From Escherichia coli (GTDB lineage Bacteria; Pseudomonadota; Gammaproteobacteria; Enterobacterales; Enterobacteriaceae), in the NCBI RefSeq assembly GCF_030013595.1, contig NZ_CP122768.1: a stretch of 64,000 nucleotides of DNA; one strand, written 5' to 3'. Positions 2,879 through 5,634 of this stretch are shown one piece after another. A model generated the notes under the pieces. It was not told where the DNA came from. It worked only from the letters and a program-made list of their open reading frames with translations, and searched no databases. A program made the translations under genes and the position numbers. Numbering within the stretch: the first letter of the stretch is position 1; the number at the start of each line of letters is the position of its first letter.

Positions 2879-3034
2879 AGATAGTCGAATGGTGGGGAAA
2901 AGTCACTCGAATTACGTATGAGATGCCGAATGCCACACTTTGCGTCTTATTTCTCCGACGTAAAGTTGTTTACGCAGCAAACGCGGAGTATGTCATCTGG
3001 GTTAAGAATTGAAATTGAGAGATGCCTGAATAGC

Positions 3035-3061
3035 AAAAAAGCGCCTTTAGGGCGCTTTTTT
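3035..3061. terminator. bidirectional intrinsic terminator hairpin (AGCGCC-TTTAG-GGCGCT flanked by A6/T7)
   Basis: perfect stem with poly-T on both strands; exact duplicate of the terminator at 3191-3217. Confidence 0.6.
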
Positions 3062-3065
3062 ACAT

Positions 3066-3110
3066 TGGTGGGTCGTGCAGGATGACTCGCTTCGCTCGCC
3101 CTTCGGGCCG
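3066..3110 (-). repeat. tRNA-Lys 3'-end fragment (17 nt) fused to conserved spacer hairpin; copies also at 3455-3499 and 3948-3994
   Basis: TGGTGGGTCGTGCAGGA followed by TGACTCG(A)CTTCG(T)CTCGCCCTTCGGGCCG occurs three times in the operon spacers. Confidence 0.7.
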
Positions 3111-3190
3111 TCGCCGCGAGCGGCTCCGTTGTTTCGCTGCGCTCAACTCAAACCTGCTGCAGGTTCGAATCTTTGAGTATCGCAGATAGC

Positions 3191-3217
3191 AAAAAAGCGC
3201 CTTTAGGGCGCTTTTTT
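3191..3217. terminator. bidirectional intrinsic terminator ending the tRNA operon
   Basis: same hairpin as 3035-3061, immediately 3' of the last tRNA-Lys on the minus strand. Confidence 0.7.
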
Positions 3218-3221
3218 ACAT

Positions 3222-3297
3222 TGGTGGGTCGTGCAGGATTCGAACCTGCGACCAATTGATTAAAAGTCAACTGCTCTACCAACTGAGCTAACGACCC
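3222..3297 (-). tRNA. lysQ: tRNA-Lys (UUU)
   Basis: reverse complement reads the 76-nt tRNA-Lys sequence with CUUUUAA anticodon loop and CCA end; name by position relative to nadA. Confidence 0.95.
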
Positions 3298-3330
3298 CTT
3301 GCGGGATTATGCTGCTTTAATCATTCAGGA

Positions 3331-3406
3331 TGGTGGGTCGTGCAGGATTCGAACCTGCGACCAATTGATTAAAAGTCAACTGCTCTACCAACTGAGCTAA
3401 CGACCC
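3331..3406 (-). tRNA. lysZ: tRNA-Lys (UUU)
   Basis: identical 76-nt copy. Confidence 0.95.
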
Positions 3407-3552
3407 ATACGGGTGTTACCTGAAAGATTTCTACTCGGAACCAATCTTTAAAATTGGTGGGTCGTGCAGGATGACTCGCTTCGCTCGCCCTTCGGGCCGT
3501 TGCTGGCGCAACGTTATCCTTCACGCTTAACATCTGAGTTTGATGTTAAAAT

Positions 3553-3628
3553 TGGTGGGTCGTGCAGGATTCGAACCTGCGACCAATTGATTAAAAGTCA
3601 ACTGCTCTACCAACTGAGCTAACGACCC
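3553..3628 (-). tRNA. lysY: tRNA-Lys (UUU)
   Basis: identical 76-nt copy. Confidence 0.95.
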
Positions 3629-3631
3629 GAG

Positions 3632-3707
3632 TGGTGGGTGATGACGGGATCGAACCGCCGCCCCCCTCCTTGTAAGGGAGGTGCTCTCCCAGCTGAGCTA
3701 ATCACCC
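3632..3707 (-). tRNA. valZ: tRNA-Val (UAC), variant copy
   Basis: 76-nt tRNA-Val; differs from the copy at 3837-3912 by one base at 3661 (variable-loop position). Confidence 0.9.
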
Positions 3708-3758
3708 GATACTGCGCTGGATACTACAAACTACTTCCACCGAACCCACCGTAATTAG

Positions 3759-3834
3759 TGGTGGGTCGTGCAGGATTCGAACCTGCGACCAATTGATTAA
3801 AAGTCAACTGCTCTACCAACTGAGCTAACGACCC
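3759..3834 (-). tRNA. lysW: tRNA-Lys (UUU)
   Basis: identical 76-nt copy. Confidence 0.95.
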
Positions 3835-3836
3835 GG

Positions 3837-3912
3837 TGGTGGGTGATGACGGGATCGAACCGCCGACCCCCTCCTTGTAAGGGAGGTGCTCTCCCAGCTG
3901 AGCTAATCACCC
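3837..3912 (-). tRNA. valT: tRNA-Val (UAC)
   Basis: 76-nt tRNA-Val matching the canonical E. coli sequence as remembered. Confidence 0.95.
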
Positions 3913-4047
3913 AATACTACGCTGGATACTACAACTAACTATGTTAGTGGTGGGTCGTGCAGGATGACTCGACTTCGTCTCGCCCTTCGGGCCGTTGCTG
4001 ACGCAACGTTATCCTTCACGTTTTACTACCGCTTCCACCTTAGCGAT

Positions 4048-4123
4048 TGGTGGGTCGTGCAGGATTCGAACCTGCGACCAATTGATTAAAAGTCAACTGC
4101 TCTACCAACTGAGCTAACGACCC
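4048..4123 (-). tRNA. lysT: tRNA-Lys (UUU)
   Basis: identical 76-nt copy; first gene of the operon, adjacent to cpoB. Confidence 0.95.
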
Positions 4124-4287
4124 ACTTTTTCGTTGCTTTCGGTTTGTTTGATATCCCGTGGCAACGGCGGCATATATTACTGATTTCAGACTTGAGCGCA
4201 ACAAAAATTTCGATGCAGATCACTCAACTGCTTATGATTCGCACGACACGACCAGAAATAATGCGACTTCTGGTCGTGTGTTATGCA

Positions 4288-5079
4288 TTACATCGCGTTC
4301 AGACGTTTTTGCGCCTGTTTAGCGCCATCAGTACCAGGGTATTTACTGATAACCTGCTGGTATACGGCTTTCGCTTTTGCGGTGTCACCTTTGTCCTGCA
4401 TGATGACGCCGACTTTAAACATCGCATCTGCAGCCTTTGGCGACTTCGGATAGTTTTTTACTACCGAAGCAAAATAGTACGCCGCATCATCTTTTTTACC
4501 CTTGTTGTAGTTTAACTGACCCAGCCAATAATTGGCGTTTGGCAGGTAAGTTGAATCAGGGTAATTTTTGATGAAATTCTGAAATGCCACCATTGCGTCA
4601 TCCTGGCGGGATTTATCCTGCACCAGCGCAATAGCTGCATTGTAATCCGTGTTTGCATCACCGCTTTTCACCGGCGCGCCAGCATTCGCAGTACCAGCAT
4701 CAGCTGTCGGCGTCATTGATGCCGCCGCACCGCTTTGATCGCCGCTGGTTGATTGCGCCGCTGCACCACCGCTGCTGAGGCTATCGATCTGCAACAGGAT
4801 CTGCTTTTGCCGCTCCACGACCTGATTCAGTTGATACTGATTTTCCTGAATCTGACCACGCAGGGAATCAATATCGGATTGATTATCAGAGAGTTGTTGC
4901 TGGAGTTGGGTTAAAAGCTGGCTGTGAGCATTTGAAATACGCTCAAGTTGAGTGACGCGGTCTTCGACCGAGCCTGAGCCGACACTACTGATTGGTGCCT
5001 GAGCAAAAGCGGCCCAGGGGGCCGCTATACCAACCAGTAACGACAGACTCAATAGTTGATGTCTGAAGTTACTGCTCAT
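4288..5079 (-). CDS. cpoB: cell division coordinator CpoB (YbgF), TPR periplasmic protein
   Basis: 263-aa ORF with signal peptide, Gln-rich coiled coil and C-terminal TPR region; last gene of the tol-pal cluster. Confidence 0.94.
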   Translation of the reverse strand: MSSNFRHQLLSLSLLVGIAAPWAAFAQAPISSVGSGSVEDRVTQLERISNAHSQLLTQLQQQLSDNQSDIDSLRGQIQENQYQLNQVVERQKQILLQIDSLSSGGAAAQSTSGDQSGAAASMTPTADAGTANAGAPVKSGDANTDYNAAIALVQDKSRQDDAMVAFQNFIKNYPDSTYLPNANYWLGQLNYNKGKKDDAAYYFASVVKNYPKSPKAADAMFKVGVIMQDKGDTAKAKAVYQQVISKYPGTDGAKQAQKRLNAM

Positions 5080-5088
5080 GCAATTCTC

Positions 5089-5634
<546 letters not shown>

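Follow-up and report, generated by a model that had tools for sequence, protein, structure and literature searches.

The lysT operon and its spacers

The window (the whole 64,000-nt stretch of Escherichia coli DNA analyzed here) carries the lysT operon, with seven tRNA genes, on its minus strand. Three of its spacer units are called tRNA-linked repeats (TLRs) below in anticipation of their probable identity. The features are given in the order of transcription, T1 and T2 being terminators, P1 the proposed closing helix, RtT the Rfam model and D2 to D6 repeat families.

4048..4123, minus strand: lysT, tRNA-Lys(UUU), first gene of the operon (ARAGORN; Rfam tRNA, 79.2 bits)
3948..4047, minus strand: TLR after lysT, short type, 100 nt (RtT, 60.6 bits; repeat family D3), with the P1 5' strand CGUGAAGGAU at 4011-4020, hairpin A at 3993-4008, the CCCGAAGGG hairpin and a small GAC/GUC hairpin
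3948-3965, minus strand: 3' end of the lysT TLR, an 18-nt copy of the tRNA-Lys 3' end
3913..3947, minus strand: valT 5' leader, 35 nt (spacer comparison, 11 loci)
3837..3912, minus strand: valT, tRNA-Val(UAC) (ARAGORN, Rfam)
3759..3834, minus strand: lysW, tRNA-Lys(UUU) (ARAGORN, Rfam)
3708..3758, minus strand: short lysW-valZ spacer, 51 nt, empty TLR site (149 nt in K-12)
3632..3707, minus strand: valZ, tRNA-Val(UAC), with G in place of U at position 47 (ARAGORN; repeat family D2)
3553..3628, minus strand: lysY, tRNA-Lys(UUU) (ARAGORN, Rfam)
3455..3552, minus strand: TLR after lysY, short type, 98 nt (RtT, 57.8 bits; D3, D5, D6), with the UUAACAUC/GAUGUUAA hairpin, P1, hairpin A at 3498-3513 and the CCCGAAGGG hairpin
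3455-3472, minus strand: 3' end of the lysY TLR, an 18-nt copy of the tRNA-Lys 3' end
3407..3454, minus strand: lysZ 5' leader, 48 nt (the sole lysY-lysZ spacer in locus L008)
3331..3406, minus strand: lysZ, tRNA-Lys(UUU) (ARAGORN, Rfam)
3298..3330, minus strand: short lysZ-lysQ spacer, 33 nt, empty TLR site (132 nt in K-12)
3222..3297, minus strand: lysQ, tRNA-Lys(UUU), last gene (ARAGORN, Rfam)
3191..3217, minus strand: terminator T1, AAAAAAGCGCC-CUAAA-GGCGCUUUUUU, 4 nt past lysQ (fold)
3066..3185, minus strand: terminal TLR, long type, 120 nt, between T1 and T2 (RtT, 46.7 bits, match 3066-3191)
3066-3083, minus strand: 3' end of the terminal TLR, an 18-nt copy of the tRNA-Lys 3' end
3035..3061, minus strand: terminator T2, exact copy of T1 (54-nt perfect repeat)
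3030-3185, minus strand: terminal repeat unit (TLR plus T2), 156 bp

All three TLRs lie downstream of tRNA genes and share their orientation. The two short-type units start directly 3' of lysT and lysY, and the long-type unit starts 36 nt past lysQ, behind T1. The operon terminator hairpin indeed occurs twice, as an earlier note on this DNA had reported: the T1 and T2 hairpins are identical, each with -19.1 kcal/mol and z = -5.75, and belong to a 54-nt perfect direct repeat of terminator plus tRNA end (3030-3083 = 3186-3239; repeat family D4). Both were missed by a simple terminator scan but are clear on folding; the pairing of the A-run with the U-run, which lengthens the stem, is probably the cause. 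The tRNA fragment that had been placed after the second terminator is present, but it precedes that terminator in the order of transcription.

Identity of the repeated units

The 64-kb window contains 8 copies of the 18-mer ATCCTGCACGACCCACCA (minus strand), where 0.00 would be expected. Five of them form the 3' termini of tRNA-Lys genes and the other three, free-standing, are the unit ends listed above, the match being exact in 3/3 units and 5/5 tRNA-Lys genes. The core GGCCCGAAGGGCGAG occurs three times (at 3095, 3484, and 3979) against 0.07 expected. The repeated tRNA-Lys end fragments of the earlier note are thus real, and so is their fusion to a conserved element, although the shared block is of 18 nt rather than 17 nt and, as the operon runs on the minus strand, stands at the 3' end of each unit instead of its beginning. 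Of the three spacers counted there, those between lysT and valT and between lysY and lysZ do separate tRNA genes, but the third unit follows the first terminator. Likewise, the CGTTGC/GCAACG hairpin is seen in two units, while the third bears GCCG-CUCG-CGGC at the same position.

TLRs have been described in the literature (Egan and Landy, 1978; Rudd, 1999, the latter as cited in PMC8144298) and comprise 22 copies at 10 loci of K-12, with one to five per locus, whose 3' 18-19 bp are the same as in the tRNA or rRNA gene upstream (PMC8144298). The covariance model of RtT (RF00391) scored all three units of the window above its gathering score of 45. The two internal matches cover the whole model only when the tRNA body stands in for the 5' half and a 44-nt insert is allowed, and the scores (47-61 bits) are far under those of the tyrT copies (133-137 bits). 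A sequence identical to the terminal unit is labelled "RtT sRNA" by PGAP. The conserved core of TLRs, namely hairpin A, the CCCGAAGGG hairpin, the variable hairpin C and GAGU[A/C]AUCC, was recovered in the window by the alignment and the per-sequence folds, with hairpin C shrunk to GCG-AA-GCG or GAC..GUC. Given the RtT scores above gathering, the excess of the 18-mer, the PGAP label, and the definition in the literature, we consider it very likely that the three units are TLRs, equivalent to Rfam RtT; this is a single joint judgement that also takes in the proposal at the RNA level, the repeat-driven gain and loss, and the dispensability discussed below.

The repeats are real but long known, having been described in 1978 and 1999, modelled in Rfam and annotated by PGAP, and they are ordinary for an E. 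coli lysT operon. Their importance at the level of the window is small. The earlier note had left them unrecognised as members of the TLR/RtT family.

Presence and absence of TLRs in E. coli

The lysT operon of K-12 occupies the same locus, has the same tRNA order and contains the same three units, but it bears five TLRs (and five RtT matches) against three in the window, those after lysW and lysZ being the ones missing here. The spacers had been suspected to be shorter than in K-12, and the comparison bears this out: because these two TLRs are absent, the lysW-valZ spacer measures 51 nt in the window against 149 nt in K-12, and the lysZ-lysQ spacer 33 nt against 132 nt. The lysW-valZ TLR of K-12 is a 98-nt unit inserted exactly 3' of the tRNA CCA, and K-12 and BL21 share a 99-nt TLR in the lysZ-lysQ spacer. 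Both units are missing from the window precisely between 18-nt direct repeats that match the 3' end of tRNA-Lys. Only a few bases separate the lysT and lysY TLRs of the window from those of K-12, and the 210-nt tail (lysQ end, T1, TLR, T2) is identical at 210/210 positions.

The short forms in the window are the commoner E. coli alleles. In a set of 5,426 complete E. coli genomes, 3,023 (56%) have the short form of the lysW-valZ spacer, a direct junction from tRNA to leader; this count may include a few two-piece joins, but every row sampled was a single piece. The short form of the lysZ-lysQ spacer was detected in 3,198 (59%). Both short spacers are thus the majority form and K-12 represents a TLR-rich minority form. 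Of the same 5,426 genomes, 2,531 (47%) have no terminal unit (TLR and terminator) in the lysT operon, ~2,287 have one and ~233 have several, with 4,818 at 0 or 1; two terminal units were found in locus L003. Rough sample estimates put the absence of the lysT TLR at about one third of genomes and that of the lysY TLR at ~10%. In strains without the lysT TLR, the valT leader alone makes up the entire lysT-valT spacer. Altogether, copy number varies at 5/5 TLR sites.

The genome counts at the lysW and lysZ sites were obtained with 42-nt probes, the flanks of which cannot seed alone, and those of the terminal unit with an anchor-distance design validated locally. Probes of 48 nt across the junctions were dropped, as pieces of tRNA end and TLR end were joined as one place and the counts at the level of at least 80% mixed alleles; the same joining at the lysT and lysY sites is the reason for giving sample estimates there in place of exact counts. 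A 5.5-kb query of the whole locus, in which flanks were seldom joined, served only for haplotype classes and for the arrangement of the window, which was matched end to end in 79 genomes. Spacer tables were drawn up for 11 loci.

One locus, L008, has no TLR at all and retains all seven tRNA genes intact, and its class makes up ~10% of a 60-row sample. TLRs are thus dispensable for retention of the seven tRNA genes of the operon. An "expansion of the operon", as had been proposed, finds no support in the same tables: every sampled strain has seven tRNA genes except one with six (L010), while the TLRs number from 0 to 5. The idea of tandem unequal recombination fared better, since units change exactly at the 18-nt repeats and copy number varies at five sites. 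The comparisons support gain and loss of TLR units exactly at the tRNA-end direct repeats, and recombination between those repeats; unequal recombination or slippage of this kind would produce the observed variation, in which the terminal 156-bp unit is present in 0, 1, or 2+ copies. In terms of populations, each of the five sites in the lysT operon is polymorphic in E. coli for the presence or absence of its TLR, which supplies natural "deletion mutants".

A covarying fold across Gammaproteobacteria

We assembled 36 TLRs next to tRNA genes of eight amino-acid types (Lys, Tyr, Pro, Gln, Asp, Ser, Arg, and Glu) from many gammaproteobacterial genera. RNAalifold on a MAFFT alignment recovered only the invariant core hairpin and a part of hairpin C. 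Because stems of unequal length were misaligned in that run, the structure was instead set down manually before testing. In this structure, which was drawn by eye from the same sequences, themselves gathered with a pattern that fixes the core, 82.8% of cells were paired against 72.0 ± 0.9 in shuffles (0/500 reached the observed value) and 30-51% with the partners slid, and 98 cells were doubly changed against 38 ± 5.6. Compensatory changes were seen in P1, hairpin A, and hairpin C. The TLR family thus has a covarying fold across Gammaproteobacteria, and without exception its 3' end is a copy of the adjacent tRNA. Conserved secondary structure across species, on which the earlier interpretation depended, is accordingly present, with compensatory changes. 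Such broad conservation and covariation speak against the family being mere junk, and the term "by-product" used below may understate a real function.

The copies in the window conform to this fold to different degrees. P1 is formed in the MFE folds of both short-type copies; in the lysT TLR, GUG.AAGGAU is paired with AUCCU.GCAC, and CGUGAAGGAU pairs with AUCCUGCACG at 9/10 positions in the short-type copies. In the terminal copy, P1 is decayed, with at least four non-canonical pairs in the outer stem and a best 5'/3' duplex of 5 bp. Compared with shuffled sequences, the long spacers are the better folded (z = -2.8 and -4.1; in full, -2.79 for the lysT TLR and -4.07 for the lysY TLR), in contrast to the short ones (z = -0.3 and -0.15), and for the lysW-valZ spacer folding is not significant (z = -0.34). 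In rttR, the tyrT copy, the annotated 3' end coincides with the CCA of the TLR.

A proposed model

We propose that a TLR is a non-coding structured element, co-transcribed with the tRNA gene just upstream, that ends in an exact copy of the last 18 nt of the tRNA, from T-loop to CCA. In the RNA, the tRNA-derived 3' strand is predicted to pair with a complementary strand on the 5' side as helix P1, which would close a three-hairpin junction made up of hairpin A, the CCCGAAGGG hairpin (invariant), and hairpin C, while an 8-nt tail ending in ACCCACCA would stay free. The spacer may thereby show tRNA-like ends and be releasable as a by-product while the tRNAs are matured by RNase P and the 3' exonucleases. 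RNase P parts the tRNAs of the lysT operon at their 5' ends with RNase E merely assisting in long spacers, and K-12 probes for these spacers made precursors visible solely in RNase mutants (PMC4176162). As for the DNA, comparison shows that direct repeats of 18-54 nt favour precise loss, gain, or amplification of units, by slippage, unequal recombination, or gene conversion, so that the number of TLRs in the lysT operon ranges from zero to five or more among E. coli strains.

Since the outer stem covaries with the identity of the host tRNA, the TLR may further be more than a passive repeat, namely an RNA widespread in Gammaproteobacteria that imitates the acceptor/T-arm end of the tRNA it follows. 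It may also be able to spread to other tRNA genes and, in certain lineages, to dispersed units flanked by inverted repeats. We regard this extension as unlikely. If it is true, the copies in the lysT operon are partly decayed members of the family, whose turnover is visible at the population scale. In many Gammaproteobacteria, the helix that closes the fold follows the sequence of the adjacent tRNA.

Other readings of the units

The TLRs could instead stem from a mobile element, either as its footprints or as non-autonomous copies of it; such an element would insert at the T-loop of tRNA genes and leave the displaced tRNA 3' end as a direct repeat. The block of identity starts at the T-loop ATCC in 10/10 tRNA types seen, with the match verified for Lys, Arg, Tyr, Pro, Gln, Ser, Asp, and Glu and with Thr and a Ser isoacceptor variant listed without a match. 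Long-type copies also have the 5' half of the host T-stem and TTCGA upstream of the insert, and the core module occurs in multiple copies, flanked by inverted repeats and away from tRNA genes, in MAGs of Rhodanobacteraceae and Xanthomonadaceae. Integrase att sites are reported to lie at tRNA genes, with the T-loop as a sublocation (Reiter, 1989; Williams, 2002), and a direct repeat of the tRNA 3' end that starts in the T-loop resembles such sites. We nevertheless judge this origin quite unlikely. Just 80-107 nt lie between the repeats, with no recombinase gene; no ORF there exceeded 55 aa and none was credible. P1 and hairpins A and C covary, and P1 tracks the host tRNA, which suggests selection on the RNA fold and not on DNA ends, and recombination between existing repeats explains every difference seen in E. 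coli. A scan of viral contigs for the 16-nt core returned almost only chance matches in coding DNA, leaving a phage origin unsupported. A few true TLRs were seen at borders between prophage and host in that scan.

RrA, RrB, and RrF at the ends of rrnA, rrnB, and rrnD (Stenum et al., 2021; PMC8144298) share with the end of the lysT operon the layout of a gene 3' end, T1, a TLR whose end repeats that of the gene upstream, and T2, the upstream gene being 5S rRNA in their case. By analogy, expression of the terminal lysT TLR by read-through is plausible, with T2 supplying a terminator hairpin and U-tail. Conserved copies of the unit are also present downstream of operons of the valU type in Enterobacter, Citrobacter, Leclercia, and Klebsiella, where the layout Val-Val-Val-Lys-T1-TLR-T2 holds one to three units. 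We strongly doubt, however, that the product is an sRNA binding Hfq or CsrA. RrA, RrB, and RrF bind both proteins in vitro and have five GGA motifs, as counted for RrB, against one in the sense strand of the 120-nt lysT unit; 19/19 TLRs of tRNA operons scored < 0.01 in the CsrA-sponge predictor of Stenum et al., being predicted non-binders; the unit is missing from the lysT operon in nearly half of the genomes, as counted above; and its outer stem is decayed. Binding of CsrA through the conserved (A/G)GGAU was also rejected for the copies in the window, where the motif is the P1 5' strand and the predictor stays < 0.01.

The earlier note took the spacers to be structured processing signals. 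The structure part holds, as the long spacers fold better than shuffles and the fold is kept across species with compensatory changes. We consider it very improbable, however, that TLRs are required to guide cleavage of the polycistronic precursor by RNase E or RNase P. TLR sites are empty in 56% (lysW), 59% (lysZ), and 47% (terminal) of genomes, a polymorphism that argues against an essential role in processing; the window itself lacks two of the five TLRs of K-12; L008 retains seven tRNA genes with none; and the separation of these tRNAs at the 5' end is done by RNase P alone, with no more than stimulation from RNase E (PMC4176162).

That the units encode small basic Tpr-like (protamine-like) peptides is hardly credible and was rejected: core frames do read ..RQRPEGR.., as in Tpr of K-12 (MRSFDQGSTRAPARERCRRQRPEGRSAQR), but the frames start at TTG inside hairpin A and are inconsistent in length and end, conservation across species tracks base pairing rather than codons, and the shared residues are a mere translation of the invariant CCCGAAGGG core.

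Relation to known systems

The proposed tRNA-linked elements of the lysT operon resemble rtT/RttR of tyrT-tyrV (Egan and Landy, 1978; Bosl and Kersten, 1991; Rfam RF00391) in the common core, in a 3' end copied from the upstream tRNA, and in tandem units co-oriented with the tRNA. They differ in that the 3' end is of tRNA-Tyr there and of tRNA-Lys here, in that the two internal lysT copies, being of the short type, are without the ~45-nt 5' half, and in the model scores given above. A stringent-response phenotype once assigned to rtT was later reassigned to a neighbouring ORF (PMC8144298). The sRNA sponge 3'ETS-leuZ, as outlined in PMC8144298, is similar in being an RNA freed from the precursor of a tRNA operon in processing; the lysT elements differ in being dispensable and variable, and are not known or predicted to have a base-pairing partner or a binding protein.

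A near-identical copy of the lysT tail is found in K-12 itself. The end of the valU operon (tRNA end, T1, TLR, T2) is identical to it at 209/210 positions, and the terminators of the two operons have been reported to be identical in sequence (PMC4176162). The valU operon is, however, a separate operon 1.74 Mb away, and it is at the lysT operon that the unit is polymorphic.

Repeated units in the lysT operon

ARAGORN and Rfam both placed seven tRNA genes, all on the minus strand, in the window, with cpoB on the upstream side of the operon and nadA on the downstream side.

tRNA genes of the lysT operon in the window
4123-4048, minus, tRNA-Lys
3912-3837, minus, tRNA-Val
3834-3759, minus, tRNA-Lys
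3707-3632, minus, tRNA-Val
3628-3553, minus, tRNA-Lys
3406-3331, minus, tRNA-Lys
3297-3222, minus, tRNA-Lys

Strain HCP5S3_I2 possesses a 5.5-kb stretch identical to that of the window. Upstream of the operon, between pal and cpoB, the CpoB/ybgF intercistronic RNA thermometer (Rfam RF02782) was detected at 5050-5188 on the minus strand (142 bits).

The repeats are genuine and greatly exceed chance expectation. Eight copies of the 18-mer ATCCTGCACGACCCACCA lie in the 64-kb window (0.00 expected), five as tRNA-Lys 3' ends and three free-standing (at 3066, 3455 and 3948), and the core GGCCCGAAGGGCGAG occurs three times (0.07 expected). A 54-nt perfect repeat (3030-3083 and 3186-3239) contains a terminator and a tRNA end, and the two terminator hairpins (T1, 3191-3217; T2, 3035-3061) each fold at -19.1 kcal/mol (z = -5.75). 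The earlier note had recognized the repeated tRNA-Lys fragments and the duplicated terminator correctly, but some details need amendment. The shared block is 18 nt rather than 17 nt, and the tRNA fragment closes a unit rather than opening it, because the operon is transcribed from right to left. The third unit is located past the first terminator, outside the inter-tRNA spacers, and bears GCCG-CUCG-CGGC instead of the CGTTGC/GCAACG hairpin ascribed to every unit.

Against Rfam RtT (RF00391), the three units scored 60.6, 57.8 and 46.7 bits, all over the gathering score of 45, and a sequence identical to the terminal TLR (3066-3185) is labelled 'RtT sRNA' by PGAP. Together with T2, this TLR makes up a 156-bp terminal unit (3030-3185). 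The elements in the window are members of the TLR (tRNA-linked repeat)/RtT family, a feature known since the textbook era and annotated in databases for E. coli. TLRs, as they were named, were first noticed in 1978, at tyrT, and Rudd compiled a catalogue of them in 1999; K-12 possesses 22 of them at ten loci (1-5 per locus), and the terminal 18-19 bp of each are identical to those that end the tRNA or rRNA gene upstream (PMC8144298).

Gain and loss of TLRs among E. coli

The K-12 lysT operon contained five RtT matches, namely after lysT, lysW, lysY and lysZ, and after the lysQ terminator. The spacers are 135, 2, 149, 3, 146 and 132 nt in K-12 and 135, 2, 51, 3, 146 and 33 nt in the window, so that two of them are indeed shorter here (51 vs 149 nt and 33 vs 132 nt), as the earlier note had suggested. 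The 98 and 99 nt absent from the window are exactly one TLR each, with the 18-nt repeat as the boundary; at one junction, K-12 reads ...ACCCACCA/gttttaac...gagtcATCCTGCACGACCCACCA/ctaat... and the window ...ACCCACCA/ctaat.... The duplicated terminator is found in K-12 as well, and the 210-nt tail is identical between the two. Past T2, the lysQ-nadA intergenic region of K-12 (L001, 2380-2460) is approximately 28 nt longer (aggcgtaaaatgacgcatcctgcacatt) than the tails of two other loci (L007 and L011), and the window, BL21 and L008-L010 bear a different sequence version; this additional minor polymorphism has no relation to TLRs.

Across the 11 loci compared, the presence or absence of a TLR was independent at every site.

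TLRs in lysT operons of E. coli
K-12: all five sites
Window: after lysT and lysY; one terminal unit
L003: as the window, except two terminal units
BL21: after lysT, lysY and lysZ; terminal unit absent
L007, L011: after lysT, lysW and lysY; one terminal unit
L009: after lysY only
L010: after lysY only; six tRNA genes
L008: zero TLRs; seven intact tRNA genes

Among 5,426 complete E. coli genomes, the TLR after lysW was absent in 3,023 and that after lysZ in 3,198; thus, the 'short' spacers of the window represent the majority state and K-12 a TLR-rich minority. The terminal unit was absent in 2,531 genomes (47%) and present in zero or one copy in 4,818, leaving approximately 2,287 with one and approximately 233 with more; the lysQ leader was wholly missing in approximately 375. 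Only 79 genomes matched the entire arrangement of the window in one piece. TLRs are gained or lost precisely at direct repeats, which upholds the recombination proposed earlier, and are dispensable for the persistence of the tRNA genes. The 18-, 25- and 54-nt repeats would drive copy-number change via slippage, unequal exchange or gene conversion.

Because the lysT and valU operon tails of K-12 (tRNA end, T1, TLR and T2) are identical at 209 of 210 positions, and the Val-Val-Val-Lys-T1-TLR-T2 layout with 1-3 units is common to Enterobacter, Citrobacter, Leclercia and Klebsiella, the lysT terminal unit appears to be a copy acquired through exchange with the valU operon, via the identical tRNA-Lys and terminator sequences.

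Six-gene operons, in which one tRNA-Lys gene and the lysQ leader are missing, were found in L010 (NZ_CP032793.1) and approximately 375-447 other E. coli genomes. Thus, the number of tRNA genes is also variable, via recombination between identical tRNA-Lys genes.

The valZ gene of the window (3632-3707, minus) bears G at variable-loop position 47 (GGGGGGCGG), where valT and all K-12 tRNA-Val(UAC) genes bear U (GGGGGUCGG). Of 5,428 E. coli records, only 117, several O157:H7 strains among them, matched a 64-nt G47 probe with 100% identity; each of the others had one mismatch. Several E. coli tRNAs receive the acp3U modification at U47, which this valZ copy might lose because G replaces U47.

Conserved structure of the family

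Scanning one genome per species with the core pattern yielded at least 120 stretches (at least 157 matches), and the matches listed were of Enterobacterales, Gilliamella, Alteromonas, Amphritea, Marinobacterium, Thioalkalivibrio, Chromatiaceae, Salinisphaera, Nevskiales, Rhodanobacteraceae/Xanthomonadaceae and Mariprofundus. Where a copy is linked to a tRNA, the 17-19 nt past GAGU[A/C] are identical to the 3' end of that upstream tRNA (Lys, Arg, Tyr, Pro, Gln, Ser, Asp or Glu).

A hand-written structure, comprising an outer helix between the 5' strand and the tRNA-derived 3' strand (P1), hairpin A, the invariant CCCGAAGGG hairpin and hairpin C, was tested on 36 diverse copies. Paired cells amounted to 82.8%, against 72.0 ± 0.9% after shuffling (reached in 0 of 500 shuffles) and 30-51% with the partners slid, and doubly changed cells to 98 against 38 ± 5.6, with compensatory changes in 6/10 pairs of P1, 5/7 of hairpin A and 5/5 of hairpin C; in these figures the core is fixed by the collecting pattern, the structure was drawn from the very sequences tested and the alignment (MAFFT) has imperfections. 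The 5' strand of P1 tracks the host tRNA, being GGGGAAGGAU for Tyr, GCCCGGCAGGAU for an Arg tRNA and GGGGGACUGGGAU for a Gln tRNA. The two internal TLRs of the window are of the short type, and in their MFE folds (z = -2.8 and -4.1) CGUGAAGGAU and AUCCUGCACG pair at 9/10 positions and enclose hairpin A, the core hairpin and a minimal hairpin C. The terminal TLR belongs to the long type, and its P1 has decayed.

Processing and possible functions

The K-12 lysT operon precursor is separated by RNase P working from the 3' end, the terminator is removed endonucleolytically directly past CCA, and RNase E cuts in the long spacers show up when RNase P is defective (PMC4176162). Each TLR would close with a tRNA-like helix that leaves a ...ACCCACCA tail unpaired, and the enzymes acting on the precursor probably trim the element too, releasing it as a by-product; the annotated 3' end of rttR falls exactly at its CCA copy.

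A mobile-element origin of TLRs is conceivable. As of 2021, TLRs had 'no known function' except the three rrn-operon copies, which bind Hfq and CsrA in vitro, and a formerly claimed role of rtT in the stringent response was retracted (PMC8144298). That the terminal unit acts as an sRNA is possible but poorly supported, as it contains one GGA against five in RrB, scores below 0.01 with a published predictor and is missing from nearly half of the genomes. An essential role in processing is unlikely, and the structured processing signals envisaged in the earlier note find no support as a requirement, since the tRNA genes persist without TLRs. Coding of a Tpr-like peptide by the units was rejected.

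Copies in other bacteria

In Photorhabdus caribbeanensis (L135, 5554-7850), one tRNA-Lys gene is followed downstream by a tandem array of at least 13 Lys-type TLR units (period 174-175 bp), and the tRNA-end copy bears point changes in several of them. The array represents a unit of the same kind amplified to an extreme.

The same RtT-like core (hairpin A, CCCGAAGGG, hairpin C and GAGUAAUCC) was found in multiple copies away from tRNA genes in Rhodanobacteraceae, Xanthomonadaceae and 'Gammaproteobacteria 48_S62' MAGs (L157-L162, L213-L216 and L221-L228). No Rfam family matched the sampled MAG copies at E ≤ 0.1. Inverted repeats of 21-40 nt (CGTCATTCCCGCG...CGCGGGAATGACG), 85-99 nt apart, flank the core in three checked loci, and none were seen in a fourth (L216).

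RtT-like core between inverted repeats
L158, 2056-2223
L221, 1006-1132
L226, 958-1100

The MAG copies look like MITE/REP-type carriers of the module.
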